Shown piece after piece: positions 6,001 to 30,000 of a DNA stretch of 32,000 nucleotides. How positions within the stretch are numbered: the first letter of the stretch is position 1; every line of letters starts with the position of its first letter. The stretch spans positions 1,080,001 through 1,112,000 of the forward strand of contig OY759724.1 of NCBI GenBank assembly GCA_963662715.1, given 5' to 3'. Source of the stretch: Candidatus Omnitrophota bacterium. Its GTDB lineage: Bacteria > Omnitrophota > Gorgyraeia > Zapsychrales > JANLHA01. The translations under genes were made by a program, and so were the position numbers. The notes beneath the pieces are model-generated. The model made no database searches, was not told the origin of the DNA, and saw only the letters and a program-made list of their open reading frames with translations.

Positions 6001-9000
6001 TGACCATAAAAAGACATATATCGCCGAGGGAAGACAAAGTCTCCGCGGCATACTTTCTCAGTTCCGGCCACATATCTTCTGCTGTGATTTTTTCAGAAAA
6101 ACAATCTTTAGTCAGCCGGGAGGTTTTTATGAGCATACGCAATATAGACATCTCATTCCGGATGACAATTTGCCTCAGGCTGGCGATATCCACTGGATCA
6201 ATCAAGCCGTTTGACTCAAAAAGTTCTGTCCCCATCCATTCTCCGTGCTTTCTTATGTGCCGTCTGAAACGGATTTTATTGGACGCTGTTAATTTAATTA
6301 AAACATCCGGTTTCACGGACAATTGGGCCAATGCGGCCGGCGCCTCCGTGCCGTCAATTATGACGACAGGACGCGTCAGGCGGGCATAGACCATAAGCCG
6401 GGCCAATTCCCGAACCATCGCCTGTTCTGAGGTTTCTCCTTCACGGCGCACGGCCTTCCTCTTTATCGCATCTATATTTAAAACCTTTATTTCCTGCGGC
6501 GTGTAGGATGCCAGGCCGATAGTCTTGATCATCTCGGCAAACATTGTTTTTCCGGTGCTGACACGGCCGGTAATCACAACAAGCGCTCTGTCTTTTATTT
6601 GGGACAAAACCTTATTTACGGAAAAATATCCTTCGAATACATTCCCGTTTTCAATCCTTTCTGCTTGTTTATGAACAGGAGAGCTGACCGGGTTGTTCTC
6701 GGAAGGACTCCTGGCCCTGCCGTCATTCCGGAGAGTAAAGAACCGGCTTATTCTGTTGCTCATTTTTTCTCGAGAGGCGGTGTCCCTCTCACCTAAAGCC
6801 GGCTTTCCGGTTTTCCTCTGCTGTTTTTGATCTTTTTCCCGTATAGGAGAACTCTGGCTTAAAGAGGCAGGGCCCTTTTCCTGCTCATTCGCCCAAATAT
6901 GGAATTGGGAATACTCAAAATCCGGGATTTCTTGAAGAACCCGTTTCTTATCTTTTAACGTTCCTTTAATAATATCGATAACAGTTCTGCTCTTTTTCTT
7001 TTTATCGGCCCCAACCCGAGTAGGAATCCGTATCCGCATCAACAAATCATAATCATGGATCAACTTGGTCCCCTGGACACAAAGGCTTTCCAATCTCTGA
7101 GATTTTATTTCCGCAAAATGATTCAATAACGGCTGGAACAAATCTTCTATAGGATCCAACTGCTCTATTTCAATTCCCGGATGCTTCCGCCATAAAGCCA
7201 GCAGAAGGGCCTCTAATTGGTTTAAATCTTTTCCTGTCTTGACCGCTATGTTTAATGGTAAATCTTTTGTTCCTTTTTCCGTACGCCAAACTCGGGAAGG
7301 AGCCTTGATATCAGGGATAGACATTAAAATCTTCCGGATGTCCTGCGGGGTCGTCTGATGCCCTGGCGATTCCCGGACGTCCAAGGCTATTCTATATACC
7401 TGCTTTGAAAAACCGGAAGTCTTAACGGATATTCTCTTAACAACGAATTTTAAAATTTGCATGGCCCTCAGCACGGCCAATAAACGTCCCGGCCTTGCCG
7501 CAGAGAATGATATGTTGATGGAATAATGACCTCTCCGGCTTTTCTCTTCATTGACAGTTAAATCCAAATTACGATTTTTCAATCTAGCGGCCGATTGCCT
7601 TAATTCCTTCAGGAGAATCTGACGGGTTCCGATCAATTGAACAAAACGGTCAAAGTCATCCGTGCATTCCTGCAACGTTCCCCTTGACAATGAATATGAT
7701 ATCCGCAGTAATTCTTCCTGCCGCAGCTGCTGTTCTGCGGAAGACAACGCCTCCACGCTGCCAGCCTGCAGCAAATCAACCAGCTGTTCCTGCCCCAAAG
7801 AGAAAGCATAACGCTTCATATCATCCCGGTCTATCACCCCTTGCCAGCAGGCTAAATATAATTCAAACTTATCTTTTAAATGTAGCCTTTCGGCCAAAGC
7901 GGACGAAAACCGGGAGAAACCGTAAGCATGGGTAATCCCGGCTTGTGCCAACAACTGCCGTTCTCCTTCTCTGCTGAGCTGCGCACGGGCTTTTCTTTCT
8001 AATCCCCAGACAGAGACGTAAAGTCTGGCGCGCCGGGTTTGCATCTTACATTCAGGAACATCAGGCTTCGCGGCTGCCGTGCCTCCCGAAGGCAACAAAA
8101 GCACATCCCCGTCTTTAATCTCATCCAGCATTTCCATCTTTTTAACGACTTTCAATGACGGGATAATCTCATCAACCTTAATCCGGACCTTAAATGTTCC
8201 GCAATAGATGCCCTTGTAAAGGCGGTCTATCTTTCGATGAGCGGCCACATCAAGAGCAATAGCCCCTTCCGGCAGACTGAGCGGGACATAATCATATTGA
8301 TCTTTACCCACCTGCTTAGCGACCAATACCGTAACGGACTTTTGGGCTCCGTAAAGATGCTGTTTGCGGATATTCGTCAACGTAGTGATGTAATCATATT
8401 CAAAATGCTGGGTGAGCCGGATATGGTTGAAAAGATCCAGGGCCTGTTTTGCCAAAGCCGGCTCATCTTTCCGCATGGAATAAACCGAATGTTTAGCGGT
8501 CCCCTGCCGGTATATTTTATAATTCTCTTCGCTGATAATAATAATTTCGATATACCGGCGCTCTTCTTCTTTTTCATATTCAGACTCCCCGAACAGAATC
8601 TGATAAGCTTCATACTTACCGCCCGTTTGCCTGGCCCGGTAAAATTTCTTTAACGGTCTGGAGACATGCTGCCATTCCGGCATGACAAACGGCAAATTCA
8701 GCAACACCGTCAACACGATGTGAATATCCTCCTCCCCTTTTACAACAAACATGCCTCCCCAAATATCACAGATCGGGTCCGTACGGCCGTCGGCCTGGTA
8801 CCGGTCTTCTTTACGGCTGTAGGAATAGGTGCTCTTAAAACGAACAGCATTTTGAGTTTTGGCCATAAAATCAGCCATATATTCCGGGATTCTCCCCGCA
8901 GGGATAAACTGTCCCGCAACTTTTTCTATCTGGCCGTGAAGGTAACCGTTAATATCCGACCATAAATCCCTGAGAGCTGTTTCCGCCGCCCTTCTGCTTG

Positions 9001-12000
9001 TAAACCGGTATTTCTGAAGCATCCGTTGATTAACAGTATTGTATCTCTCTTTGTCTGCCGTCTGTAAGACCTTGGAACGTATAACAGCAGCAATATGCGT
9101 TTGTCCGAAATAATTCGCCAGGAAAGCGTCCACATGACAGGCTTTCAGGCTCAAATACTGCAGATGCTCTTGCTGTTCTTGAGATAAAGTTTTTAACCCA
9201 TGATAATATTTCAATATTTCAATAATACGAGCCCACCGTAAAAACAATACTGGAGAATATTTATGGAGATCATCCTGTTTCAGGAAAAACTTAATATATT
9301 CAGGAACATATTCTTTGTCGGTGATGACCCCTCTCGGCATGGGAGGATCGTAAGGAACATTCATCCATTTGCGATAATGTGTCAACCATTCCAAAACAAG
9401 CTCTCCTTCTTCCCGGCCAAAAGTTTTTCTTATCGCCTCCTTATGTTTCCTCGTTAAAGAATCAGAATCAGCTAATAATATCCATGCCGCCCCGACCACC
9501 AACGGGGGAACAGTCCAGCCCCGGAGCCGGTAGACCATGCCTTTAGAGACAGATACATCGGCAGAAGACAGAAGATGTTCCTGCTGAAAATCCACGGCCA
9601 ATGAATGCCCTTGCTGACTCATCCAGTCATATCCTTTTTCCCTCACCGGGCTGTTCACACAGGTATTCTCTTCCCGACTATTTTCATTTCCCGCAAGGGT
9701 CTTAACCGGTGAGCTGCTGTTTGTATCGGCCGGACCCACGTTCAGCCGCTTTAGGGCCGCTTCAATATGCTTTGGCTGAAAGACCTTGACAGCCGGGTAT
9801 ATTTTCTGAAGAAGCCCGCCGACCCTGGCCCAGTCGGAAAGATCCCGTAAATATGACCGCATGTCGGACAATCCGGCCGGCTCCAATCTTCTTAAAGCAC
9901 ATAACCTCAGGGGCCGGTCAATATTGGCCTCAGCAAGAACCTGTAGTATATCTTCACGGCTGCGGGCCAACCTCAATCCCTGCTCCTGCAAAGCACCAAA
10001 AATCCAGGAAACCATCAGATCGCCCTCGGCAATACGAATATCCTTAACGATACACCCGGTTTTCTGCCAAAGACGGATCAGCTGAATAGCCAACTCTTCT
10101 GATATAAAATCATAAAGAGGTTCCAGCGCCGTAATGGGAAGGCCTCCTTCTAACAGGCCCCAGAAACATGCGGCATCATTCTCCACGGGATCTGCTTCTC
10201 CTCTGGAGTGGACGAAAGCCTGGCTCAGATCAAACAGGCTTTTGCCAAGGTATAAACCTTCATAACCCTCAAGATATTCGGAAAGATAAACAGGATACGT
10301 GCGTGTCTGTTTATTGAAAGTTCCCCGGACATGAGCGAAAGACAAAGGTGCCGGAAAAATATCCGTGTGCGTGTTGACCGCCTGCAGGTTCTTAAATTCT
10401 GACGGCACGCTCAACACGGCATTCTTTTCTTCAAGCCAATGGTTGTCAACGGTCATGATCCAACGGACCATCTGATTTTTCATATATACTTCCACGCTGA
10501 ATATTCCGGCTGATCCCGGCTTCTCCGGTTCACTGCTCTTGCCGGATAACAGCGGGCGGACATTTATTAGTTTAATATCTGACAAATAATATGATCCCGG
10601 GAGAACCTCAATGGCCCGCTCAAGCAGGTCCGTTTGAGTGAAGGCATTTTGTATCAGTTCCTTATATAACGCCAGCGTATGGGCCATAAAATATTCTATC
10701 TGCTCCAGACTCATGATTTGATCAAAAGGACGGTTATAATAGGCAAACGCCTCCAAGGCTCTCGTATCAATCCGAACGTTCACCGGAGAACTAGACACAA
10801 GCATATTTTGGAGATGTCTTTTTGCAATAATGACTTCAACAACCAGTCCTTTATCGTCGCCCATTCTTTGCGTACGGTCAAAAGGAGTCACAACAGCGCC
10901 GATGCGGTAGGCATGCGTTAACATGATGGCGTTCCCTTCTCCCCGTCCGCCAAAAAACGGATAGGGGCAGGCATTCTTTTCGTCTGTCTTGAAAGCTGCG
11001 TTAAAGGAAGCCCCGTTGGAAATAAGCCGCAGGAGGATATCCCGGCCTTGTTCTTCCACATAGAAATCCACTCTCAAAGGCCGGTCATATGTTCCCGATT
11101 CATAAACCCGCTGTAAATATAAATCCATCATATTCTCAACCGTATGAGCCAGTACCTGCTCCAAAGAAGCGACAAAGGGACGATATAGTACCAAATCAAC
11201 TTTATCCCGGGAACTGCCGATCAAAGCAAATAATGTGTCGAGCAGCGGAACGGTCACATTTTGTTTAAACAGTTCAAGAGAAATCCTGTAGACCAGCTCC
11301 TGTTTCGCGTCGGAGTTCTTGCTGCGGACGATAGGCAGCAATTCCTGCAAATCTTCGTATGACAGTTCCAGACGACATAGTCTTGCTGCAGACGAACCTT
11401 CCCGGTTGACCGGGCTGCTGGAAGGATTATTTTTCTTAAGCGTTTCCCGTTTATTGATATTAAGAGACGAGCCGTTCTCTGATGACGCATTTACGCTCAG
11501 GGACTCTTTTGTCCGCCGGAACAACTCATCGACCGCACCCGGGGCAGACGGCTCAACGCCTTTAAGAAAACGGATGGACCGGACAAGATAGGCCGCCCAT
11601 TTCTCTGATAATTCTTCCGGATCATGATCGGTAAACCGGACCTTGGTACATTTAAAGAAATCATCCTCAAATACTCTTTCAGCAAGATCCTGATCAACGA
11701 CCCGGACAATAAATTCGTCTAACACTTTTTCATAATCACGCAGTTTTCGTCCTGCCAGATATTCAGATTCGAGCAGTGACCGAGTGGAAGATAACGACGT
11801 AAAATAGATCAAGGCATTAACGAGCAATTTAGCGCCGTTGACCACATCATTGCGCACTATTGCAAAAGGATACGGCGGGACCCTCCGGGGCAGGGAAGGA
11901 TGTCCTACTCCGGGCTTGAGCTTTTGCGGGTCATAAACATTACGGCGGAGAAATTCCGCTAACCGTTCTTCCTGTTCTTTTTCCGTGAAGGACGCCTGCT

Positions 12001-15000
12001 TGGTAATGAGGATACGGGAAAGATCCGCACCTTTAGAAAAATCACGCTGCACAACAGGGTGCTCCTCCACGGTTCTCCTCGGGACAAGGATCTGAACGCC
12101 GAGCTTGGCATGGAAATCGTCATTGGCCGACTCAAACAGGTAATAATGAGATCCAAAAATTTCCCTGGAGACCAGGTCCGAAAGAACGGTCATCGTTCCT
12201 CCGATGCCCTGATAGCCTTTGGAATCAGGATAGAACAATCCGGCATTGCGGTAACGGACCTGCACCCAGAGGGCCGGGGCTATGGCAAATACATTATGAC
12301 CAACGCTCCATTGCCCCGAACGATGTTCTGCCTCGGCAGACGCAAGACTTTCCCGGCGGATTTCCGGATATGTTTTCATAAGGTCTTCATCGCTGCAAGA
12401 ACTCTCATCCAGGAATGTCACGAGACCCCGCTCTGTTTCGGTCGTGAAGGTCTCTTTTTCGTCCGTTACGATAATCCGGTCGGCTCTTCCCACAAACTGA
12501 TCCTGCTCCGCGTCATGGCTGATATCAAAAACATCAATAACAAACGCTCTATAAGGCTGAAAGCCTAATTTTTCCGGGCCAAATTTGGGCAAAGCCGCCG
12601 TCGTCCCTGTCCGAAGCCGGAACACCAATTTATGTTCCTCATCCACCCGGTACACAGCGTGGCCCCGTGTTAAGAATCCCTCTCCGTCAAATCTTTTCCT
12701 GCCCTGCCCCTTAATAGGATCTTCCGCGTTTCCAGTGACAGGCGAACTGGCGGGGTTCCGGATGAAATACACATCCGTTTCCAAGCGCCGAACATCCATG
12801 CGGGCTTGGCCGATCTTCGCCCCAGGCCGATAGGCTCCCGCCGATTTAAAGGTTTCCATAATAATGTCAACGTTATTTAAACCTCCCGAATGCAGCCAGC
12901 GGACAGGCTGCCAGACAAGGGCCTGTCCGCCCGGGTTCAAGACAAGAGGTAAGGCCCGGGCAAAACGTCTCAGGGTCCGGCCGTTCGCATCTCCGTCCCA
13001 GAGGGAATGACCGTGTTTCAGTCCATCGGATTCCGACACGTTCAGATCCAATTGCTGCATGTTCCACAAGACAAAATCAAACCTCCGATCCTGGAATCTT
13101 AAACGGCCGTCAGGAGTCATAATATTGTCTCCGATGACAGCCTCAAGCCCGAAACCGTTGTTATTCGCCACCGTGCGCACATTCGCCACTTCCATAGGGT
13201 TCAGGCCTATCGCATAAATGATCTCGCGTGTTTTGCGGGAAACAGCCCAGGCATCAATTCCGCTGCCCGGACCGACCACCAGCACCCGGCTCCACGGCTG
13301 AATGGGCAGCTGTTCAATCAAAGCGTGATAATACCGCATATCTGTTTCAAAAACCACTCTGGCCCCCGGAGTGTAAACAGTCGGTGCGACCGGAAGGAAT
13401 GTTCTATGGATAAACCGTTTCTCCGGACGGGACATCCACCGCCGGACGTACGTCCTTTCGAATTCCTGCCAGTTCTTCTTAAAGAGAAGGTCAGGCATTT
13501 CTTCGGACACCCGCCAACGGATATTTCCGGGGGTGGTTTCCATCAAAGCAAAGACATACGGGGAGCAGATAAATTTGGATGCATACCCCTGGCTGACGTC
13601 CATCGCTCCCTGGTAATTTTCCTCGGCATATTCTTCAATAATCTTCTGGTCATAACCGCGTCCGGCGATAGACTGATGCCAGGCAAAAAGTCCTTCAAGA
13701 TCATCAAGCCGCGGCACCGGGATATTGAAATGACTCAAGTTGAAATAATTCCATGATTTTAAAACAGACGCGAAATCTTGCCCTGTCCGGGATATTTGTC
13801 CTTTGACTTTCCGGGTCATAGCAGGAAAGACGGCAATCAGCTGATCATTGTTGTTAAAAATCAGATCAAAATCTGTTAAGTCCTCTCCGTTGACATGGCC
13901 CAAGTGATGCTGCAGGACATCTAACCCGACCGGCGCCCGGCTCGTATCTTTCCTTCGCGAGATACGGATTCTCTGGATTCTCGCTCCGAATTTTCGTTCG
14001 CTCCACATAATCTTATAAGCCCTAGCTCCCGGGGACGCGTTCAGGCCAAGGACGTTCATTATCTCTGCTGTAAGGGTTGTTTTGGCGTCCGCCTGGATGA
14101 CGGGGGAGCTGTTCCCGCTTAGAGAAGTGCGCGCGCTTGAACGCGGAGCTGTCTTTTCTATGATTTCCTCAACAAGGCTTTCCCAGATATAGATACGATC
14201 TTTATCGAGGACTCTGTTTAATCTTCTTTCATTGAGCCATTCCACAAACATAGAATCAAACACATGTTCCTCCAAATCCGTACGGCCCCGGTCGCCGGAC
14301 TGAAAAGCATCCATGACCCGGCTAATCTGCGCTATAGACCGTGTAACCGCCCGGGCACCATACCGGTGCATGATCCAGTCCAGCGTAGAACAATATCGGC
14401 CATGCACATCCTCATAACGCTCCACCCGAATCCTGTCCCGATAATTTTCGTCAAACTGCCCGAAGGTCGGATCAATCCCTAACACCGGAATAGTCTGATA
14501 ATAAAAGACAATCACATAATGTGTTTTGAATTTGTCCCGAAAAATCATCCTTTCCAGGACAAAAGACGTCTCTTGCCTGTCGCCGAACCGCACTTCTAAT
14601 ATTTGTGCAAGAACCTGCCCCAGGATATAACCGAATTCCCGGCAGAGATGATCCCCTTTGCTCCGCCATTCCGGCAGGCCTTGTTTTATAACCTGCCAGA
14701 TCTCTCTCTCATATAATCCGAGATAACCGTGTATCCCTGTCTTTAGACGGCTGAAATGCTCATTATCGACCAGATCCAAATCATAGGTGACCGGGCTGGA
14801 GGAGACAATTTCTTTCCCGGGAGATTGTCTCTCTGAAACTTTTTGGACCGGACTGGATGCTTCAGGATCATCATTCCTGTTTTCAAAAGATTCCATTTCT
14901 TTCAAAATACGCATATCATATTCATGAACCTTATGCATAAGCAGTTGATGAAGCTGCAAAAATTTCATGTCCATCCCCGGGAGAGGAATCACAGGCAAGA

Positions 15001-18000
15001 ACATCAAAGCCCCTAAAATCTGGCTGAATCGGGCCGGGCCTTTAATCCTGATCCGCTCGAAAAGATCATTTATTATTTCTTCTTCCGGGACGTCCGGGGT
15101 AAAAACAAAACAGGCGGCAAGATACAAACTTATCGCCTGGCTCATTCCGGGGGTTATCTCCAAGGAACTCGTCAGCCGCGACCTTAGGTTTTCCTGTATC
15201 CCGCTTGCCTTGATCTGTCCTCCGTTTATCAAAATCTTTTCGTAAGCCAATAACTGAATAAAAGTATAAAGGCTTCTTAAGAAAGCTTCCGATCTGGCCC
15301 GGCCCTCCGGCGTAGATGTCTCAACGGTCCAGTCGACCTGGAAGATCAAAGCATCAATGATAAAATCGATATTGTACTGCGGATGAATCATGTAAAGCTC
15401 TATTAAGGCTTTAAGGTCGCCGCGCCTTAACTGCTCCCCGATAATCCTTGGGGCGATCAGGGGTTCCAGTTCAGAAAAGGCTTCGCCGATATCCCATCTC
15501 AACCGATTCAGCTTGGGGATCGCCTTTGATTCAAGCATTAAAGCTTCTATGATGTCTCTGATCCTGTTGATGCCTTTTTTAACATCCTCCATGATGTCAG
15601 ACAGCTTTTCGTTTCCTAGTATCTCCTGAACAGCCTGCTTGGAAATCCCATTGCTCAGCATCTCTCCCGGTAAGTTCCGTTCGGATCTATAGAGCTCAAA
15701 CAGACCGTCCAGGGCATTATAAACAGACCAGAATATAACAAAGGCGTTCACATGTTCAGGCAATCTCTCTTCCGGCCATTGATACTGGCTGATAACCGAT
15801 GTGCGGAGGAACGCTTCCAAAAGCATCGACCGGTCTCCGGCATATTCCATGGCTTGTTGCGGACGCACCCGATACAAGGAATAATCAATGACCCAGCCTC
15901 TTTGGGAGGCTTTGGATCCGGTAATCGTTGCCCCGGCATAAGGATCGACAAAACGGTAAGGATTAAATTTCAACTTCTCCGCTTTCCCTTGCCCGAGGGC
16001 CCATGTCGTCAGTTCACAGCACGAGTTGATTGTATTCATAAGTTTTCTCGCCGTATCAACGGCCGGGTGAATAAGAATCAGGGTCGCGTTTAAGTTCATG
16101 CCGGCTCCGAGGATGATGCGCGCGGCATTCTTATTGGTCGCGGCCCCTCCCCGCATTTTCTTATCCATATCTTTTAGCACGTCATCGTCATAAGATTCAT
16201 GCCCCATCAGCACCATGCCCATACGTAAATCTCTATAAAGAATTTCCGCCAACTCTGGATGACGGTCAATGTTATCCGACCGCATTAATGCGAAAGTAAC
16301 GATTCCGGATTCCTGGAACTCCCCGTTCTCCCGGGCGAGAGCGGCCAGTTCCCTGTTCCTTTCCGGCCGAAGGTTGAAGTTATCGTCATTAAAGAATATG
16401 GCGCCTAAACGCGGAGCAAAATTCCTTATGATATTCAGCAACACCCTCATACCGTCTTCCGCCGGCAAGAGTGAAATCTTCGGTTTAATGCCCAAGACCC
16501 CCAAGGCTTGCGTCTCTTCCGCCGTAAGGTTCCGATAAGCATCCGGAAGCTGGTTGGTCGATGAACAGAAGTCACAGCCCATCGGGCATTCTGTCTCAAA
16601 ATAAACCCTCACGGTTCTGACGAATTTGTCATGGCCGGTGGCTTCCAAATGCTCCAATCCGTAATAATTTTCAATATACTGCCAATATTCTTCGTAAGGG
16701 ACATTGATCGAATCATGCATCAAGGTGACAAGTCGTAAATCATCCAGCTGATAGTAAATGACGCCCCTGGCTTCCTGCACGGCCCCGGATTCACTCCGGG
16801 TAAAGACGCCTCTTATCCGGGCAAAATCACGAATACGATTTTCTGACCGCCGGAGAGCCAGCGCCATTTCAAGCATAGGATACTCGCCCCATCCCGAGAT
16901 GACGGCGTCAACGGGCGCCTCCCGGATCAGCTTCTGACGGTTGAATTGCGCGCCCTGTCCTCCGGCGATAATAACCGTATCAGGCGACAGATTCTTAATC
17001 TTGAGCAACTGTTTAAGATCTTGCGGCAACGTTTGATCAAGCATACTGAACCCGATCATATCGTAATGGTTCTCCGTGACTATCTGCTCCAGATCATGGC
17101 GGCCTTGCAGTATTCTTAAACTGGCATCATAGACGTCGACTTCAAAACCAAAAACTTTGAGGAATGAAGCGATACGATACAGTCCGAAAGGCGGCGCCAG
17201 GAACTGTCCGGGCCGTAACTGCGGATTCGTCGGCCCGACCAAAAGAATTCTCGGCAACCCGGACAACGGAAGGCTATCATTAAAACATAAGCCTTTACCG
17301 GACGCCAGCCGGTCAAGGCGCCCGATTATAACCGCTTTACTTATGTTCAGGAAAGATAGCCCGCCCAGGACAGGATGCGCCACCAGACGTTTAATATGGT
17401 CTTTCGTCGGATCACCAAGACTTCGCGCCTCTTCTGTAAGCTGTAAGACATGTCTCTCTTCTTTCTGATCAACAAACGGCTGGTCAACGCTGAGCAGTTT
17501 AATATAGAGATACCGGGCGGGAGTTGACAAATAATTAAAACGGCTTTTCAGAGTTATTTCATCCAGCGCTCTAAACAGCTGCGCTTTTTCGTCACGGGTC
17601 ATACGCGCAAGATAAAGGTCAATCTCATCCCGCTGCAGCACGGATCCGGTGCCGGACCTTAATGTCCCCGTGGCATCTAAAGATATCGCGCCCGATCTGA
17701 CTCTGTCATTGACACGCTTTACGAATTCCGGAGATTCTGCCGGGGAAACGGCAATGTCCTGATACAGGGCTTTTACCTCCTCGGTCAAAGCGGCCCGGGA
17801 AGAATTCTTGTTTAAATATGCCGGTTCGAAAACAATGAGCCTCAATTCAAATATCTCGATGGCCGCGGCAACCTCTTTCCCTAAGAACCTGGAGCCGGCG
17901 GCAGGTCTGCGGGCAAAATACAGCCCTTCCGACGTCAACAATAAATTATAGCTCATATCATGCGCATGAGCTTCCTGAATAGCCTGAGACAGCCATCGTG

Positions 18001-21000
18001 ACGTTTCGGAAGCGTGTCCCTGTATTTTCAGATTCTCCGACGGCCATGCCGGGACATGAGAGATCCTCAGGCCTGTTCCCTGGTATAGCGTATTCTGACG
18101 TTGCCCTGCCATCTGGACGGCCTTTTTCTGCCTGCCATAATACCCCTGAAAATGCAGGTGTCTCTGGGAGTTCCCGGCATTATCAGCATTAAAATAAATA
18201 TTGAAATGCGGAAGTCGCTGCTGGATTTCGAGAATATCTTCCATATCCTCCCTCGTTATTTCCTGGAAGCGATGGATCAGTCTGCCGGCATGATCCAGAG
18301 GCACAATAACAATATGGAACTGTTCATAAGCGATCCTGTTGGTCCATATTTCCCACTGCCGTCCGCTGTTCAGCCGCATCGTAACAAGTTTTTGTCTGTC
18401 CCTGACGGCAGAATCACATAACGGGCACTTTACCTGCCGGGCCTGTTTTTCCCGTTCCGTTTTCTTCGTTTCTTTCGTTCGCTCCTCGTGATAACGCAAA
18501 GCAAACCTCAGCCCTCCGGCCTTAAGTTTTCTCTGCTGGAATTCCGAAGGCATAACTTCGATCAAGCCCCTGGATCTTCTCTCCTCCCACGCCCGGAGAA
18601 GGGCTCTCTCTTCTTCATTCATGATCAGATTCGCATAATAATACCCGAGGACATACGCTATCCGGTTCATCACATTCTTAAGGAATCTCCCGGCAGTCCT
18701 TTTACGAACCGGGCTGCTGACCGACGGCGCCCGGGCCGTCCTGCTGCTGTCCATCATCACCGGGCTGTTGGCAACAGAATCCCGGGTCCTGGCTTCCGGC
18801 TGAATCATGTCCGTGGAGTAGGCAGAAGCCCCCGCCGAGCCGGCAGAACTTTCTTCCTGGCTCTGTGGCTGTGCCGGTGATTTATATCCCCGATCAGCAA
18901 AATATTGCACAAAAACGGCCTCCCCGGCTTTGGCAAGAACATCAAGGAATGTGACAAAGCGGTCAGTTTGATCTTCATAAGTGAGGAGCTGATCAATAGG
19001 AAAGATATGAATATAAAGCACAAATTTCCCGCGTTCTTTTCTTAGCCGCATCCAGGAATCTTCTGTCCTGCTAAAATCGGATGTCACCTTCACAGAAAAG
19101 CTCTCAACCGGAAGCTTTGCGATACGGACTGTTATCTGTTCATATAATTTTTGCAACGCGTCTGTCTGAGACGGGGATAAAGGTCCGTTATCCCTGGCTT
19201 TCCAGACAGGCTGGCCGCCTGTAAAATCCAGTTCCCCGTATAAAGGATTGTCCCGGTATTTCTGTTCATAGATTCTTTTGGTCTCGTTAAAAGGCTTGAA
19301 CATAAACAAACGGTCGTCTTCCTTCGCTGTTTCCGGGGCCTCTTTGCTGACCTCATTTTTGATAATTTCAAAATGGAGGGCACCAAAACCAACAACGATC
19401 GGCACTTGAGGCTCCTGCGCCTGGACCGCCAAAACAGACCGCGCCATGGCGACACTTCTTGCGTCATTGATTTCGTCAAGCCTCGACAAAGTTATTCCGT
19501 TGATGTTATACATAAGTTTCCGGGCCGCTTCTCTTAACTCAGGGGAATCCAGTCCGACAATCTCGATATTCCGGTGGGACATATCATTGTCCATATCGAA
19601 ATAGATGTAATTCACCGGCAGATAGAATAAGAGAAACACTTCTTTTGCTGTTGCCGCAGGTCTCCGGACATTCTTTCTCTTCATAATACGTAAAATGGAA
19701 TTGTACCGCTCTTTGGCCAGTATGGTGGACCTGACCCATTCTGTAGTATCAAATTCATTCCCGTAAATCACTTTCGGATATTGTGCGGATAAGGCCTTAA
19801 CCTGCTCAACAATCTGTTTGTAACGGTTAATGACAGGACGGTAAGAAGCCAAAAGCCTGTTAACTCTTGCCTGGTATACTTCATCAGAAACATTGGCATT
19901 CAGCAGCTGCTTCATCATAATCTGGGTGAACCATAAATCAGTATGTTCATAGCCCCTTAAATAAACCGTTCCGATCCGGGCGTCAGGGTTAACATCCATT
20001 GCCTCTCTTAACTCAACAACAGCCTTTTCAACAGACCTGAGATATTGAACTTCATCATGATGTTGCTTGATGCTTTGAACAAAGGAAGCACAGCCCGACA
20101 AGAAAACGAGCTGCGGAAGGAGGATAAAAAAGATTAAAATCATCCGGAATATTCCGGGGGCCCGGGCGCCGTTGATACGGAACATTTTGGCCATACGCTT
20201 AATTTTTCGGACGAACCAGGTTTCTCTTTTAGAGGCCTCCGGCGGCCGGATAGGAGATCGGCGATCTGGGCGTACGGAATGAACTCCGGCCCGCCAGTGA
20301 CCGGCAGACTCATCCTGCCATATCCCCGCATCATCTGGATGGGTCTGCGGAGCAGAAGGATTGACCGGGGAGCTTGCCTGATTGGAGTCATCAGCTTTGT
20401 GGTTACGTTGTATTTCGGCCAAGGCCTTTTCCAGGGTCTCTTCAATAGCCGGCGGGTCATAAGAAATCACCCTCTTGAGTTTTTCAACCGAGAAAACCCT
20501 TCCTGTTCCGACGTCAGGCTGTGTCATGCCTTGTTCTTCCCGGGACAGAAGGTTGGCCTTCCGGCCTAGACGTGATTCCAGGAAAGAAAGCAGTTCCTGC
20601 AAAGAATATTTCGTTCCGGTCCCGACATTAAAGACCTCGGACAAATCCAGGTTTTGCTCCTGGGCCCAGAGCACAAGCCGGACCATGGCCTCCGCGGCAT
20701 CATCAACATAAATAAAATTGTAAGTGTCCGACGGGTTGGAAACAGTGATCGGCAGGCCCCGCAAGAGATTGACCGTAAACTTGCTGAAAACATCCAAAGG
20801 ATAAACTTCATGATGATGTGAGAAAAATTTGGGAATCGTGTTCGATAACCGGGCAATAATATACGGGCCGCCATATCTCTGGACAATCTTTTCCCCCCAG
20901 TATTTGCTTAAATCATAGGAACTCTCCGCCGGCTCAGCAGCCACCGTCTCGTTGATATAAACGCCGGGCTGTCTTCCATAAACACGCACGCTTGAGACAT

Positions 21001-24000
21001 AAAGAACGAGCGGCTGCTTTTGCCGTTCTTCCCGATATCCTTCCAGAGCACGAAGCAGGCTGTAAAGACCCAGCATGTTGACCTCCAAACTATCGAGTTT
21101 CTTTTCACGGGTTTTAACAATATCGGAAAGCCAGATAATGGCGTCCGGCTCCGAATCAAAGACCGCGTCCCTCACCTGCTGATCGTTTCTGACGTCAAGT
21201 TTGACAACTTTCGTTTTGAGGCCTTCTTGCGTCCCGTTAAAACCGGAGATTCCCGATAAACCTGTGACGATGATCTCCCGGACCTGCGGCATCAGTTCGC
21301 TGATTTTTCTATACAACGATCTTCCGATAAAACCGGTTCCCCCGATCAGCAGGACTTTTTTGACCGGGTGAACTTTTGACGGTGCCGGTTCCGTTATTTT
21401 TTCACGCTCTCCTAATAACGGGGCCTCGGTCAAAAATTCCAAAAATTTTCTCGCAAGCTGCGTTTGAACCTCATAACCGCAGCGGGCATAAAGTTCAATC
21501 ATCCTGCCCGTTCCCGCCGCCAAAGCCTGGCGGCCTTTCAGCGTCCGCATCGCAGCCGGGCTCATCATCTGACCTATTCTCTGAGGAAACTGCGCTGTTG
21601 ACACGACGTCTTTCATTGAAGCCTGCAGGGACTCTTTATCCTCCTGATACCATGTCCATAAGAATTCCATGAACTCATTGATACGAAACGCCCAGGGGGA
21701 ACAAACCTGGCAATGCCGATCAATTCGCGGATAAGTTTTAAGGAAACTCTGCCAGAGATTTCTTCCTATGACATCAGGATCAACGCCTTGCACAAAATTA
21801 TATAAACTTCCCCCGCCGGAGTACCCGCGATGATCGCACGGGTACATTCGCCCGTTGGGGGCAATAACGCCCGTAAACAGCATGGCCCAGCATTTCTTGG
21901 CTTGGCTCACAAACGGCTTTTGTTCGTGACGGCCGATCCTTTCCATATCATCTGTTCCATGCATGGCAACAACGGAATACTTGTGGTTCGAAAAGCGTTG
22001 AGAAACATCAAACAAGGCTTCCAGGTCACGGAAATGAGAGTTGAGAACTTCCGCGGTCATTAACCCGGTTATATCGAATTTAAACCGCAAAGAATCAACT
22101 CCCAGCTCCTGCATATCGGAGGCCATAGTCAGGATTTCATGAAAATTCTTCCCGGAAATGACAAAGCCCACGTTGATCATGGTGGAGAGCTGCTGCAACC
22201 TTTTCAGGCTGACGAGATCCGCCATGTCGGCCACTATGCCCTGATAATCTAATTTCTGGTTTCTTTTAAGCTTGCGGAAGGTTTCTTCGGAAGCGGCATC
22301 AAGGCTGACATGGACATAATCCAATAAATGCAACACGTCCTTGATTCTGTGCAGTCCCAGCCCGTTCGAGAAAACACCTTTTCTTATAGAAGACGGCAGG
22401 TTCCGAATAAGGGCAGGGATCCTGCGGCCGAAGCTGCCCTCCAGGGGCTCGCCGAACAATCCTGATAATTTGACCAATTTGAGTGCACCGTGATAATGCA
22501 ACTCCTGCACCACGGAAGTATAAATATCAAAAAGCCGGTCACTGATAGAATGATATTCTTTCTGGGTCTGTCTGATTTCCGGTAAAGACAATATCCGCTT
22601 TCCGATACAATGTTCACACCCCATCGAGCAATAAGGGCTCTGGATCTCTAACTCCGTCAATACGTGAGCATATTCGCCTCTTTCCAACGCTTCGAATACC
22701 TGAATGATGGACTCATGCTGTTCAAGCAGGAAATCAAACTCATAGGTAAAAGGAATGCTTCCTTTGCTGAGGTAATCGTAAAGCCGCCGTTCAAATTTCT
22801 TTCTGGCCGCTATTCTTCCTAAATGATTTGACTCGTCTATCGGGGATGAGGCCGGCCCCCTATGATCCTCTATAGATTCTTGATCCTCTGCGTGCTGCCT
22901 TACGGAACTGCTTACGGCCTGAGCGAGCTTCCGGACATCTCTGTCGGATGAAAAATCCCGGGCAAATCTTCTGAATCTCTCTATGCTGCCCTCGGCATGG
23001 ACAAGCTGCCCGGGATAATCAAAAATATTCATCGGAGCATAAGGATGCCTGAAGACAAACCGATAATTCATTTCTTCCAAGAACCGCAAACGCAGTATTT
23101 CTATAATGGCTCGTATCTCTTCCAGGCTGAGTTTATTCCGGACGGTCTCGTTATAGGACCGAACCATGACTTCCAGTTTGTCCCGCCCGTACGGAAGCGG
23201 AGCGGCGATATCATCCCGTCCCAATATTAGATTATTAAACTCGAGCACGCGGATATCCGTCACAGCCATGGCGAAATCTATTATCGCAATAACATGTCCA
23301 TAAACGTTGAAGATGAAATTCCCGACATGCAGGTCATTATGAACCGGAGATTCCGGGAGTCCTTCGGCAGAATAATTGCGGCTGAAAAGCTCGGTCTGCT
23401 TCATGATGAAAGGCTTATACGTAAAGAATAGTTTCTGTCCTGCTTTACTGACCGGGGAATCCCTCTCTATGCCGTGGAAAGCTCTTAAAGATTTCTCCAC
23501 TTCACTAAAAATCTGTTTTCGTGATTTATAGCGCCGTACGCCTTCCGGCTTAAATCCGAACAATACATTATTTATGTGAGCGGCGCTTCTGGCCGTGGCC
23601 TGAAAATCTTCTAAACGGGCATCCTCAAGACGGATCTTTTTCCCGTCTCCCATAAATTCTTCCAGGATATAACGCGCCCCGTCACATTCAACGATATAGT
23701 TCAAGGCCGTATCCTCTGCCGTTCCGGAGACCCGGTAAAGTTCCGGCACGGGCAGCCCGGCACGGTGCAATTCTTTCATAACAGAAACAATAAACCGGGC
23801 CCTTGTCACAGGATCCTGTATCCTTCTTAAGACCTTTTCTTCCTCTTGCGTGATAATCAATACCGGAGGATGCGTGCTTCCGATGCCTCCTGTCAACACC
23901 TTGCTCCCGGCTTTCCCGATTCCGTAATACTTCCTCACAAGCGCTACGGCTTGATCCTGCCCCTGTTCCACCGGCGAACTCGTTATCGGGCTTGGGCCGG

Positions 24001-27000
24001 ATGTCGTTTCATCAGACAGGCTGACCGCCTGGGCGAAGATGTTTTGCTCCTGCTCGCTTAATTCAAAGCTCTTGCCCGGGAGCCACTGGGACAAAAATCG
24101 TGCTTTCCTTAAATGAAGCTGCGCCTGCAAAATGTGCTCGGTAAGACTGCGGAACAAATTGCTTTCAGCCGGCTCATCCTGCTCCAACCCCTCCGCATAT
24201 CGGCTCACAAAAGCGGCCTGGTAAAAAATGGTCCAATACAGGTCCGGATGTCTTTGAACAACATGATACCGGGTGTTCCGGCGGAACTCATTAAAGGTCT
24301 GGCGGAAGGCCTCGGCCCGGCTCATCCCCTCTCCGGTTAAATGACTCGTGACAAAACGCTGGCGGTAATCCTCCATGAAGCGGTTTAATGTTATGGCAAC
24401 GATAACCTTATTTTTCAGGAATTCAAACGCCTCTTGAATTTTATTATGGTCTTGTTGAGTCTTATAAAGTTTGGCCAGCAACGGCTGAACATGTTTCCGG
24501 AAGACAAGAGCTAACACTCCATAATCCGGTTCGGACGGATCAAGATACGCCGGATGCTCAGGATTCAGGAAATCCTGCTCCAGAATCATGCGCGGGAGTT
24601 TATACTGTCTGTACCGCAATGGTTGCAATGCTTTAAAAACCCGGGTCTTAAGGGCATTCTGCCGCCGGCTCACTTCCTGGCGTAACCGGTAAACTCTTGC
24701 ATGATTAAGACCCCGGACAATAGCCCGGCTTTCTTGAATCCTGAGTTCAAGGATCTGTTTTGTGACTTCAAATAATCCCCGGAGTTTAATAAACGCATGA
24801 GGACCTTCATCTAACAGTTGTAAGCTGTGCGTAAGAATGATACGGGCCAGTAATTTTTCTTCTACGAGAACATTTTGCAGTCTGTTTAACTGTTCTAAAA
24901 TAAGCGCCCGGACCCTGTTTGTGTCTTCATGAATGATATCCATCAGACGGTCGAGCAGATGCCTCAGTTCATAAATCCATCTTATTTCATCCAGTTCAGA
25001 ATCAACCATATGATCAACAGCCCGGAAAGCGTCCCATAAACTAGCATAAGTCAAATCACCATAAGTTTTCACGGCTGAAGCATTCCATTGACCGGCTTTT
25101 TCGAACCGCTGTCCGCGCAAATGATATAAGCCGTCTTGCTCTCTTCTTAACCGTTGTGGCGGGGTATGGCGTTCCTGCCGTAAGCGTCGGCTAAGATGGG
25201 TTTCTTTAATTTTATGCAGGGCTATTAATGTAGATGTCATAATCATATTAACGGCCGGCTCGTTATAAACAGCAAGCAAGGCCTGGACGTGATCAAACCG
25301 CTGCAATAAACCTTTCGGCAGGTTCATATCTGCAAAGAATCGAAGCTTGAGCTGAATGTCTTCAGCCACGTCAGCGAGTTCTGCCCGGAAGGGAGTTTCG
25401 TCTGATGCGGCTTTACGCTTTATAGTCAAAATGTAAATACGGAAATTCCAATCAGCGACTTGCAGCGTGACGTCCCCTAAAGCGGCTCGATACTCGAGAC
25501 GGAATTGCTTAAATTGTCTTGAAGCGGCTTTAGAAGCAGATGGGGCTTTCTGATTAAGGTCAATATGAGATATTGTGCGGTCAATAATATAAGAAGGATA
25601 CGCGAGTTTCTTTAATATGTTTCTTAAAATGATCCGGCGTGACCGGGTCCATTGCTCTGATCGCGAAACGGCCCGCTGATAAATTTGAGCTCTCAGGGCC
25701 TGAACATCTTTGGCGGGGGAGAGATCAAGGTCATTTACAAACAGTTCAACTTGTTCTTTTATCTTTTCCGGCGGGCCGTGAATCTTCCCGGACTCCTGCA
25801 GATATTCATAAACAGAGATACGATAGAGAATGTCTTCCAGATTCTTAAACCCTTGCGTAATGTACGGCTCTTCTTTATACCGGGGATGACTGTAACGCTG
25901 CCCGGCCCACCTCATGGATTGCGCGCTGATCGCATGTACAGGGCTGGGCGCCGCTATCGGGGACGCGGACTTCGGCGCGGCTTTGCCCGATTCTTTGGAA
26001 ACCGGCGAGCTGGCGGTATCGTCTGAATTTTCTGACCGTACTTCGTCCCACAATTGTTTAAGCAAATCCCTGTCCGATCTTGATATTTGCTTATAATGTG
26101 CACCCTCTTGATGGAATATATCGTTTAGCGCAGCGGCAAAATCAGCAGCAGGGTTTTTCCGTAGATAATAGCGAATAACATTTTTGAAAGCTTTGCTTCG
26201 TGCCAGCGAACCTAGCTCTCTCTCATACATCTCTCCCTTCTTATTTAATAATAAGGCGTCCAGCTGCCCTTGTTCCCATAGACGACGATACGTGAGTTCA
26301 TAAACTAAACTTAGCTCGATCATTAACTCTGTCTGATCTCTATTAATCACAATTTCATATGTTTTGTCTGCCTTAATCACAGAAAGGGCAAGAGTACGGT
26401 CGGCGCCAAAGGTAGCTCTTGGGAATCCGGCAAAGAAACTATGAGGCAGGGCTATAATCTTTATCTGACCTGCTTTTTCTTCGCTAAAGCCAAAGAAACT
26501 TCTGACTTGTGGGGCGATTTCATTTAAGTTGTGACGAGCTGCTCCTTGGATATGTGTATTAATATAGCTTTTCACCTGGCGCGCTGCAGAATGCTCAATA
26601 TGCGCGCACCCGCCACAGAAGATGAATACTGCAGCAACGATAATAACAAATGGCGGGCTGTGAATGAACCGGGCAATATACCTCCCCAAGCCCGCCATTG
26701 CGCCGGCTGTCCTGTCGATTCTAATCCGCTCGGGTGACTGAACGCCCTTACATGAGGCGGAAATGTTAAAGTTCTTGTTCACCGGAGAACTGGATAAATC
26801 TTTATCCAAGGATGTCCTTGATGAACCGGCCTGCCTCCCTTTATTCAAGGACATGTTAAACCGCTCTTCAAGCATTCTATTCAGTATGGGGTCTTCCAGC
26901 ATGACTCTTATTTTAGCCGCATCGCTGTACACATTGTTTAATCCGGGTTCAACATTTTGACTGAAAGGAGCGGTCATTTTCAGAAGATCTTCAACCGGAG

Positions 27001-30000
27001 CTTCCCTGTTAAGCACAAAAGAAACAAACGGGTTTCTATTTACGGCATCAACTATCGACGTTAAATCCTGATGCTGTATGTTCGCCAAATCAAAGAACTC
27101 GAAAAAGTGACTGTCTATATTAACGGCACCGCCGGGATAAATATCCAAATGATCCCTTGCCGTACTGAGCCTGCTCCCCCTCTCATGGATATCCTCATCA
27201 TACTCCTGCGCATAAAGTTCCGCGCTCAGGTGCCTTGCTTCACCGATAAAACTCAGTAGCCCCCGGCGCACATGCGGCAACCTTAATCCTTTACTTGATA
27301 ATATGTCCTTAAGCTGAATATAGGAAGGATCTTGCCGGACAAAATAATCAAAAACGCTTAACGCGAGCGTAATTTCAAAATGATAGGTATTTTTAACGGC
27401 TTCAATAATGTTGACGATATTACCGATGGGGATGACCGGCTTTCCTGTAGGCCCTTTTTGGCTGAAGACAAACTGATTGACGCTTAGCTGGATAATCAGA
27501 TCTTTATCCCCTGAGCACAGCAAAAGATCCCTTAAAACATTTCTGGTTATCTGCGGTGTTTTTGCCCAGAAACCATTTGTTGCCAGGGTTACGACATTCG
27601 CGTCCACGTGCCTAAGCAACATACGGACCAAATCAGGTTTAAGGAAGGGTTCTCCGCCGGTAATGCCCAAATGACTTATCCCGCCGAAAGTGTTGATCCT
27701 TTCGATAAGCAACATCGCTTCCTCCCTGCTCATCGAAGGCAGCCGTTTAACCCAGTTCGGCCAATAGCAATGCGCACACCGCAAGAGGCACCGAAGAGTG
27801 ACATATACATCCAACGATTTTATGACCGGTGAGCCGGCACGTTTCACTGCCTTTGCAGGGCCGGCCATATATTCTATTGGGCTTGAAGAAGAAGTCTTGG
27901 TTTCTTTTTCTCTGGATTCTTCTCTGGAAGCCAATCTATCACCTGCAATGATTGAAAGTGCCCCTGCTAACAGCGGGCCGGTCACGCCTAAAAATGTTTC
28001 TGCTTTATACAAGCCGTTTGCTTCCCGGCTGTGCATCCTTAATAATTCCCAGACTGTCTGGTCAATGTCCTTGCCGTACAATTGTTCTTCTTTGGCAAGC
28101 CAAACTTCTACGGCCCCTCCCCTGGTCTTTACCACACAAATAGCGCCTATCAGATGAGAATACGCGGCCAAAGGAGTCTTAACTTCTATTATTTCTCCAA
28201 CTTTGAATCTTCGCTTTGCTCTCTCGTTTATTATTTCTCCGACATACGGTCTGGCCATTAAAACAAATATCTTCTCTTTACCAAGAAATGTCTGAGCCGT
28301 ATGTTCAGGCCACATATTGAAAGCCATAATCTCACGGCACACCGTATCAGGATAGGCATTCCAGTTAACAAAAAGTCTCGGGATAATTTTACTTGCCCAT
28401 GCGCCCGGTTTTGTTGCCCCTTTCTGTTTCTTCAATTCAACTTTTCCTTCTGCAATAGCATTTACAGCGCTGACCAAAAGCCCGGCTGACAGAGGCGCAA
28501 GTTTCTCCGTAAGCGTGAAACAGGATTCCGTCAGACTTACTTCTACACCTTTCAATCTTGCAACAACCTCTCCGGTATCCCATCCTTCTTGTATCCTGTG
28601 GATAGTTATGCCTGTCTGTCTTAACCCGAATAAAACAGCGGCATGAACGGGTAAACCACCCCGCAATTGCGGCAACATCGAAGCATGAACATTAATAAAA
28701 TCGAATTTAAATGTTTGGGTAATTTTTCCTGTAATCTTATCGGGCCAAACACAAGTTACGCCAAGGTCCGCGTTTACTGTTTGTAAATATTCAATTAACT
28801 CATCGCTCTTTTCATCAACAAATACTTCGGTCCCATTTTCTTTTGCAATCTTAATGATTTCTTCACTTTCTCTCTTTGTGATTACGCTTACAACTTTAAA
28901 ATTTGCTCCTCTATCCGCAAGCAAAGACTGAAGCGATAAACGGCCAAACAGTGTCCCTTCGCTGAAAAAGACAATATTGAGCCTGCCGTAAGGTTTGGCG
29001 TAACCGGGGTATTCTTTTACCAATCCGGGAACCGGGTTACGAACTGCGGTCAAAAATCTTCCGAAATCAAACTTCTTCATCGGGCTGGAGGCCTTGCCCT
29101 CCGCATTCCTGATAGCGTCCTCAGAAACCGGAGAACTGAGACTATCCTGAGGCAAATTATTTCTTTTTGCCCATTGTTTTATTAAACTTTTCTCTGTATG
29201 TATGGGCAAATTAATAATAAAGACCGTCCCAAAATTTTTCCTGCTTTCTATTCTGAGTTTACCCTCCAGGAAATTCACGACATTCTGAATCTTCGGCAGA
29301 CCGAATCCGAACCCGGATATATTGAACACGCCGGGTTCCGAACTGGTAAACCCAACCAAAAATGCCTTGTCCAGGGCCTCCGCCGACATCCCTATCCCAT
29401 TATCGATTAGCCTCATCACAATTCCGTCTTCTTTTACATAAAGAACACATTCTATACGAAGCGGGATACCGGGCCTTCGGAACCAGATAGCATTCTTAAC
29501 AACTTCATTGCAAACCAGGTCAAACATTCCTGGCTGAGTAAAGAGTTCGGGGACTTCTGTTTTCTTCTCAACTTGGTTAAATGATACGGGCAGCCCTTCG
29601 GACCATAACGCGATGTACTCTGCAATGACCGCGTTCATTTTTTCTTCAAGAGAAACATTGTGTCGCAATATTCCGTAAGGCCTGCCGTTCATAAGCTCAT
29701 TCGCGTGCTCTAACAGCCAGATAATAAAATAGTGAATATCGAACATCTCTTTTAAGATAACCTGCACCTCGTTGCTTGTTCTGCTTTCTCTGCTAAAAGT
29801 CTCCGGGTTAGATATCAACATCCAGAAATCACTTAAACGCTTGTTTTCATCTTCTCTGGAGAAACCGGTGGAATGTCTGGGGAATCGTCTTTTGAAAATC
29901 TTTCCGTATTTGGCAAATGGGTAACTGAACTGTTCGCATAAACCGTTCCCGCTATGCTTATCCAGCTCCTTTAACAAGACATTAAGCCTTGTTACATTGT

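Follow-up and report, generated by a model that had tools for sequence, protein, structure and literature searches.

A lipoprotein-type signal inside a giant Omnitrophota reading frame, possibly an inherited export signal of a processed polyprotein

The window analyzed here, a stretch of 32,000 nucleotides from a Candidatus Omnitrophota bacterium (assembly GCA_963662715.1, contig OY759724.1, positions 1,080,001 to 1,112,000), is crossed by one open reading frame (ORF) on the minus strand, running from 31999 to 2 through 10,666 codons without a stop, whereas each of the remaining five frames contains 314-678 stops. What the window shows is an interior section of an Omnitrophota giant ORF, in which gene-sized modules follow one another head-to-tail via disordered linkers carrying a short motif, SSP[VI]. 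At the head of one of these modules (module 9), behind at least 3,934 in-frame stop-free codons, we found a lipoprotein-type export signal with all its parts in place. Our preferred reading, which we hold tentatively, is that this signal was inherited with the module and that it functions after, or by means of, the processing of a polyprotein.

The signal lies at 20194..20084 on the minus strand and encodes MAKMFRINGARAPGIFRMILIFFILLPQLVFLSGCAS, residues 3935-3971 of the frame (0-based), beginning with ATG GCC AAA ATG TTC and ending with TCG GGC TGT GCT TCC. The giant frame and the parts of the signal and its module are:

2..31999, minus strand: giant reading frame with 0 stops, open at both window ends; its relatives are Omnitrophota giants
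20363..20374, minus strand: SSPV ahead of module 9 (residues 3875-3878), one of 23 SSP[VI] motifs
20195..20362, minus strand: polar Pro/Arg-rich linker of 56 residues from SSPV to Met (7 Pro, 8 Arg), with no Pfam match
20144..20194, minus strand: n-region MAKMFRINGARAPGIFR, whose in-frame Met codons start at 20194 and 20185
20102..20143, minus strand: h-region MILIFFILLPQLVF, with a Kyte-Doolittle mean of 2.79 over 15 residues and 2.37 over 19
20090..20101, minus strand: lipobox L-S-G-C (residues 3966-3969), with Cys3969 at 20092-20090, then Ala-Ser
18719..20092, minus strand: mature part of module 9, made up of a homologue-shared domain (about 19322-20017) and a C-terminal half that matches nothing, with a tail rich in Ser and Ala
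18707..18718, minus strand: next SSPV (residues 4427-4430), at the C-terminal edge of module 9

A sequence-only reading of this DNA had described an in-frame Met, a basic n-region, a hydrophobic h-region and an L-S-G-C lipobox at 20194-20084, and translation confirmed each of them. The distance it gave also holds, with exactly 56 codons between SSPV (20374-20363) and the Met, as do the Pro/Arg-rich character of the linker and the lack of any stop upstream, the frame being stop-free throughout. The n-region is positive and the h-region uncharged and within the usual range of about 7-22 residues; the charge of the 25 residues on the N-side of the hydrophobic core is +8 and that of the 25 residues on its C-side is 0, which is how a signal peptide is oriented. 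This h-region is among the two strongest hydrophobic stretches of the ORF, and no hydrophobic segments occur in the 6,700 residues that follow the signal. For the lipobox we used two patterns, [LVI][ASTVI][GAS]C and a PS51257-type core, {DERK}(6)-[LIVMFWSTAG](2)-[LIVMFYSTAGCQ]-[AGS]-C. The first has 2 matches in the ORF, of which L-S-G-C alone trails a signal-like hydrophobic core, and the second matches once, at the module 9 lipobox. The lipobox residue Cys3969 is the sole Cys of the 552-residue module 9.

In these respects the signal resembles those of bacterial lipoproteins, which are handled by signal peptidase II (SPase II; Lgt, LspA, Lnt): the basic n-region, the h-region, L-S-G-C and the small residue at -1 are all present, and Ala stands at +2, which by the +2 rule of E. 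coli would direct the protein to the outer membrane through Lol. It differs from them in that it is not N-terminal, and lipidation and cleavage here are predicted. The Cys has a position that fits a lipoprotein signal only if Met3935 (Cys at 35) or Met3938 (Cys at 32) is taken as the start. Because it fails in N-terminal position, we do not file it as a proven lipoprotein signal peptide; it may nevertheless work like one. A perfect 14-bp palindrome, CCGGAATATTCCGG, was also noted at 20144-20157, inside the coding sequence of the n-region and directly before the ATG of Met3952. It was flagged in a terminator scan, at background frequency, and is probably incidental.

An exhaustive HMMER search of 1.84 billion representative proteins returned one match to module 9, P0001 (E 2e-23, 33% identity). 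No relatives of module 9 were obtained by word-indexed protein search, with either the single sequence or a two-sequence profile, or by a scan of genome contigs, and an exact 36-mer of the signal region had no match in genome, metagenome or viral contig collections. P0001 is a free-standing gene of 367 amino acids (aa) that begins with a start of its own behind an upstream stop; it occupies 439-1542 of contig L001, between a gene ending at 414 and another starting at 1841. Four full-length variants, each of 367 aa, make up its 90% cluster and come from JGI, NCBI and ENA assemblies. The N-terminus of P0001, MPRFHPREHADPAAIAPNSEKGRQPPSASRRSILVIVLAGSLTCTTCAMT, is basic, then hydrophobic, followed by Cys, and that of the family reads RRSILVIVLAG[SA]LTCTTCA. 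Alignment by BLASTP and MAFFT identified three motifs conserved between module 9 and P0001, namely IG[TS]..G..H.D, ND.R..MAR and P.VVG.GA.H.E, and from the end of the hydrophobic core to the first of them the distance is about 40 residues in each protein.

Since the stand-alone homologue carries its signal at an equivalent spacing, it is well supported by these alignments that module 9 represents a captured whole pre-protein gene, export signal included. The mature domain is about 26-33% identical to this nearest relative. The GC content of module 9 (0.484) and that of its third codon positions (GC3, 0.518) equal those of the rest of the ORF, and a recent horizontal import of the module was rejected on this basis. 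The idea that the signal is a relic of a formerly independent lipoprotein gene captured by fusion, one of the options raised from the sequence alone, thus stands as to origin: a free-standing homologue with an N-terminal signal at similar spacing exists, but without a canonical lipobox. Likewise, homologues lacking the Met, basic and lipobox features had been named as evidence to the contrary; Met, basic residues and hydrophobic core are present in P0001, and only the canonical lipobox is lacking.

The identity of the mature domain gives a further, unproven lead. P0001 scores 21.5 bits against PF01963 (TraB/PrgY/GumN), below the cut-off of 26.8, over its C-terminal G-x-G-A-x-H motif; module 9 itself has no match to PF01963 even at E values up to 10, nor to any other Pfam family. 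In hhalign the G.GA.H motif falls opposite that of PrgY at a non-significant E of 0.14, and ChaN is the top Foldseek match at a likewise non-significant E of 0.11, obtained with an AlphaFold2 model of module 9 with a pLDDT of 46.6. The TraB-type motifs, an N-terminal G-x-x-H and a C-terminal G-A-x-H, may have counterparts in IGT..G..H.D and VVG.GA.H, which are conserved between module 9 and P0001. A profile search of the PDB with the module 9 domain yielded nothing relevant. The likeness to the TraB/GumN/ChaN superfamily thus consists of the weak PF01963 match of P0001, the alignment of G.GA.H with PrgY and the rank of ChaN in Foldseek, and the difference is that no match by Pfam, hhalign or Foldseek is significant. 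The mature domain may be a distant relative of this superfamily. Members of the TraB/PrgY/GumN/ChaN (Tiki) group are typically extracytoplasmic, and ChaN is a lipoprotein; such an identity would fit an extracytoplasmic location of module 9.

A second segment of the ORF has a similar make-up:

26606..26698, minus strand: second signal-like segment MAGLGRYIARFIHSPPFVIIVAAVFIFCGGC (residues 1767-1797), heading module 5, with a Kyte-Doolittle 15-residue mean of 2.82

Its 19-residue mean is 2.31. Here SSPV (26791-26780) is followed by a polar linker, a Met located 31 residues after the start of the SSPV (27 codons between), basic residues, about 15 hydrophobic residues in a row and G-G-C, a near-lipobox. 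This stretch falls short of the length of a typical, stable transmembrane (TM) helix. The domain of about 200 residues behind this segment has no Pfam, NCBIfam or significant PDB match.

Could the module 9 signal be a chance resemblance, that is, a hydrophobic stretch of a domain core that happens to precede Ser-Gly-Cys? Residue shuffles speak for this to some extent, as they yield 0.43 PS51257-type cores per ORF, where the real ORF has one. When a Met and a basic residue are required in addition, the number falls to 0.13 per ORF, with at least one match in 11% of the shuffles. The bare lipobox pattern is therefore weak statistical evidence. The Met of the signal is itself not significant, the frequency of Met being 2.1% and a Met within about 20 residues being expected about 35% of the time. 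The conjunction of features is not chance-like, because of the strong hydrophobicity, the +8/0 flanks, the unique Cys, the second segment with G-G-C and the signal of the homologue. The segment is linker-proximal and lies outside any domain core, it can be aligned to the signal at the N-terminus of a stand-alone protein, and it is one of two signal-like instances in the ORF. With Cys making up 0.65% of residues, [G]-C closes 2 of the three or four segments that look like helices, which we consider improbable by chance (a rough estimate, of the order of 1e-3 to 1e-4). Overall, chance resemblance is extremely unlikely.

The surroundings of module 9 are those of a giant multi-enzyme protein, with more than 10,000 codons tiled with about 15 different Pfam and NCBIfam families. 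Cutting the ORF at its 23 SSP[VI] motifs yields about 21 gene-sized modules that are mutually unrelated by Pfam and NCBIfam and are mostly cytoplasmic-type enzymes. Their matches include HATPase_c, formyltransferase, radical SAM and an APH-type kinase; a weak radical-SAM match together with an NAD-dependent epimerase; DUF4922 with a B12-binding radical SAM; a HemK-like methyltransferase; a weak RelA/SpoT-like match; and P-loop NTPase, TPR, Trypsin_2, GNAT and transglutaminase-like core matches. Among them, the HATPase_c, formyltransferase, radical SAM, APH kinase, NAD epimerase, B12-radical SAM and GNAT modules flank module 9. The ORF has no internal paralogous modules, and intragenic duplication was rejected for this reason. 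Nor is it a repetitive adhesin, its modules carrying matches to unrelated enzymes. No Rfam families or tRNAs were found across the window. The giant protein seems to be built from captured whole genes.

The SSP[VI] junction motifs are placed in polar, low-complexity linkers between Pfam domains:

30220, 29137, 26791, 20374, 18718, 14857 and 3460, minus strand: example sites among the 23 SSP[VI] motifs

SSPV accounts for 20 of the 23 copies, against 0.13 expected from composition. The copies differ in their codons, and the motif is therefore conserved at the peptide level. Within this variation a codon pattern AGY-TCN-CCG-GTN can be seen: the first Ser is AGY in 17/23 copies, against a background of 0.33 (p ~7e-5), and Pro is CCG in 18/23, against 0.52. 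The AGY bias is missing in both giant relatives of this ORF, though SSPV is enriched there too; it may reflect common descent of the linkers within the ORF or a constraint at the nucleotide level.

These two relatives were the only ones returned by a 4,681-aa query, and both are partial giant proteins from metagenome-assembled genomes of Candidatus Omnitrophota. P0002 (3,108 aa) is 60% and P0003 (5,763 aa) 31% identical to module 6 of our ORF, and SSPV occurs 6 times against 0.039 expected in the former and 7 times against 0.064 expected in the latter. Module 6 is the sole part of the window common to other Omnitrophota giants:

23936-25936 of the window, minus strand; about 5530-7533 of contig L002; about 14395-16128 of contig L003: module 6, about 670 residues, with no assigned function

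In all three proteins module 6 is flanked on both sides by SSP[VI], but its neighbors differ, which indicates that the modules behave as shuffled cassettes. In P0003, residues ~4320-4565 (L003) form a compact polytopic membrane module whose exact limits are an SSPT on one side and an SSPV on the other. This protein also repeats a longer linker, GTVLKP(R/F)..EVSP...SSP[VAL], five times. The apparent end of P0002 at 9323 adjoins an N run (a scaffold gap, L002 9324-9423) and is maybe not a true stop; the ordinary genes mutL and mutS follow it on L002. A three-sequence profile of module 6 found no further giants in metagenome or viral contigs.

The Omnitrophota giants described as multi-enzyme metabolic clusters (West-Roberts et al. 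2023, 10.1101/2023.11.21.568195; a 2026 preprint, 10.64898/2026.06.07.730766; Seymour et al. 2023, PMC10066038) share with our ORF a stop-free length of more than 10 thousand aa (kaa), HATPase_c, GNAT, radical SAM, methyltransferase and peptidase domains, scattered hydrophobic helices, and relatives in Omnitrophota only. They differ in that these papers mention neither an SSPV junction motif nor internal lipoprotein-type signals. One pipeline used on such giants recodes internal signal-peptide calls as 'outside' and treats them as chunking artefacts.

What a complete export signal does amid such modules depends on whether the chain is cut. One alternative is an uncleaved membrane anchor, in which an ordinary TM helix or signal-anchor tethers the uncut giant to the inner membrane, with the lipobox there by coincidence. 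The apolar run after Arg3951 (MILIFFILLPQLVFLSGCASFV) has 22 residues, enough to span the bilayer, and published surveys count many TM helices in giants (42 predicted in a 39,678-aa protein, 147 in a 147,155-aa protein) and read them as membrane anchoring. The difficulty is topology. A charge bias of +8/0 implies an N-in/C-out orientation, which would leave 6,700 residues on the outer side, among them the B12-radical SAM, methyltransferase, GNAT and NTPase modules, and the chain has no later helix by which to return. If this segment is paired with the one at residue 1783, it is the APH kinase and radical-SAM/NAD-epimerase modules that end up outside. The marginal candidates at 1334 and 2894 are of no help, the latter being the catalytic core of the kinase, and all combinations with the candidates at 1334, 1783 and 2894 still leave cofactor-dependent enzymes outside. 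In addition, the other strong segment has only ~15 apolar residues, and an anchor leaves unexplained the [G]-C ends of both segments and the unique Cys of module 9. We thus regard an anchor as rather unlikely, and the suggestion that the segment is a TM pass switching the topology of the uncut giant is disfavored, every helix combination exporting cofactor-dependent, cytoplasmic-type enzymes. ATP, S-adenosylmethionine (SAM), NAD(P) and acetyl-CoA, which the neighboring modules need, do not occur in the periplasm. If module 9 is exported, its neighbors can therefore work only when the chain is cut. Since the topology of the uncut chain is unworkable, two options are left: a dead signal, or a cut chain from which module 9 alone is exported.

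A dead signal would have come with the captured gene and would now be without a role, staying in the cytoplasm or being tolerated in the uncut protein. The well-supported capture of the gene agrees with this, the pattern by itself is not rare in shuffles, and conservation cannot be seen through orthologues, none having been found. Against it stands the strength of the hydrophobic core, which with a +8 flank would engage the signal recognition particle (SRP) and Sec and hence be selected against if useless. Moreover, the signal is fully intact despite the low identity of the mature domain (~26-33%) and a fully ameliorated codon composition, and a second module retains the same layout. These data make a dead relic unlikely in our assessment.

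Internal translation initiation, also raised from the sequence alone, would produce a separate, conventional pre-lipoprotein from the giant mRNA, starting at Met3935 or Met3938. According to the PS51257 rule, the Cys lies at 15-35 with K/R within the first 7 residues, and counted from these Mets the Cys is within it; the bases before the ATG are also A-rich. But no Shine-Dalgarno-like motif is present, GGAG, GAGG and AGGA being absent from the 30 nt before ATG 20194 and ATG 20185, as the sequence-only reading had remarked, whereas 3/5 real starts on the contigs of the relatives have GAGG/GGAG-type motifs. The coding strand has no promoter-like site near the signal, and no meaningful terminator was found near it. 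RNA stability around the Met codons is unremarkable, with ranks at the 70th, 44th and 39th percentiles among 229 scored in-frame Mets (for the second signal, the Met ranks at the 16th), and a Met at such a position is expected by chance about 1 in 3 times. The stop would still be missing, and translation would continue into module 10. Internal initiation is thus very unlikely.

The preferred reading, an inherited export signal acting through processing, is the only one that leaves the neighboring enzymes in the compartment where they work, and we consider processing plausible. It is favored because of the junction motif, the cassette behavior of the modules and the presence in the same ORF of a trypsin-like module with its triad:

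2030..3460, minus strand: trypsin-like serine peptidase module, matching Pfam Trypsin_2 at E 1.2e-10, above the cut-off

The catalytic triad of this module is intact, with His in TSKHG, Asp in NDVAVIRL and Ser in GDSGAP (2716-2699). Sequence relatives in the PDB were sought and nothing significant was found. Judged by its family match and triad, the module is a candidate processing protease for the linkers. An HtrA-like preference for Val/Ile at P1 would suit the V/I at position four of SSP[VI]; this is speculation. The last module (2-1042, minus strand) combines TPR with a weak transglutaminase-like match (a cysteine protease fold) at E 6.8e-4, below the cut-off, and is a possible second peptidase-type module.

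Under the processing reading, the giant product would be cut in its linkers, at or near SSPV, with the trypsin-like module as the candidate enzyme. The freed module 9, retaining a long N-terminal extension, would be targeted to Sec by its hydrophobic core in an N-in/C-out orientation. Lgt would then lipidate Cys3969, and LspA would cut between Gly3968 and Cys3969, giving a lipid-anchored periplasmic or outer-membrane protein. In a variant of this scheme, the N-terminal cleavage would be carried out by LspA itself on the still intact chain, in the way that signal peptidase acts on internal signals of other polyproteins, and another protease would be needed only for C-terminal release at SSPV 18718-18707. 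We infer linker cleavage, export and lipidation of module 9 from this combination of features.

Processed polyproteins offer precedents. In Flaviviridae, internal signals are cut by host signal peptidase, alongside the viral chymotrypsin-like NS3 protease, and in Bradyrhizobium japonicum the FbcH cytochrome b/c1 precursor is cut at an internal signal peptide. The likeness to these systems lies in several mature products per ORF, an internal N-in/C-out signal before the exported part, a trypsin-fold serine protease in the same ORF and a short recurrent junction motif. The difference is that the giant ORF is cellular, an order of magnitude larger and equipped with an SPase II-type signal, and that its cleavage is deduced from sequence.

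Several points weigh against a functioning, processed signal. The signal as translated is not N-terminal, and even after a cut at SSPV the Cys would lie ~91 residues from the new N-terminus, compared with the usual 15-35. P0001 has Thr at -1 in place of a canonical lipobox residue, and lipidation is therefore not a conserved trait of the family. Protein and contig searches did not turn up an orthologue of module 9 within any other giant ORF, and no further lipoprotein-type signal occurs in 8.9 kaa of related giant sequence. The window holds this ORF alone, and lgt and lspA are not among its content. Finally, published work on Omnitrophota giants leaves cleavage open and states that the cleavage points are unknown.

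Giant ORFs, lipoprotein signals and internal signals of polyproteins are each already known. What is new is that a cellular giant ORF contains a canonical SPase-II-type signal which can be linked both with a free-standing homologue and with a junction motif that recurs along the chain. The main open question on Omnitrophota giants is whether they act as a single working chain or as many cut products, and a complete export signal amid cytoplasmic-type enzymes bears on it directly: either the chain is cut or the signal is dead. If the chain is cut, new N-termini are predicted in the SSPV linkers, together with a triacylated Cys3969 peptide. More broadly, it is conceivable, if doubtful at present, that Omnitrophota giants are true cellular polyproteins, in which dozens to hundreds of captured genes would be translated as one chain, cut at SSP[VI] by proteases that the chain itself encodes, and their products sorted by their own signals; many predicted TM helices of giants would then really be signal peptides of internal modules. 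The signal of module 9 suggests that the TM helices counted in giants may in part be such inherited signal peptides. If the polyprotein reading is true, these bacteria would use a mode of expression and sorting known at scale only from viruses so far.

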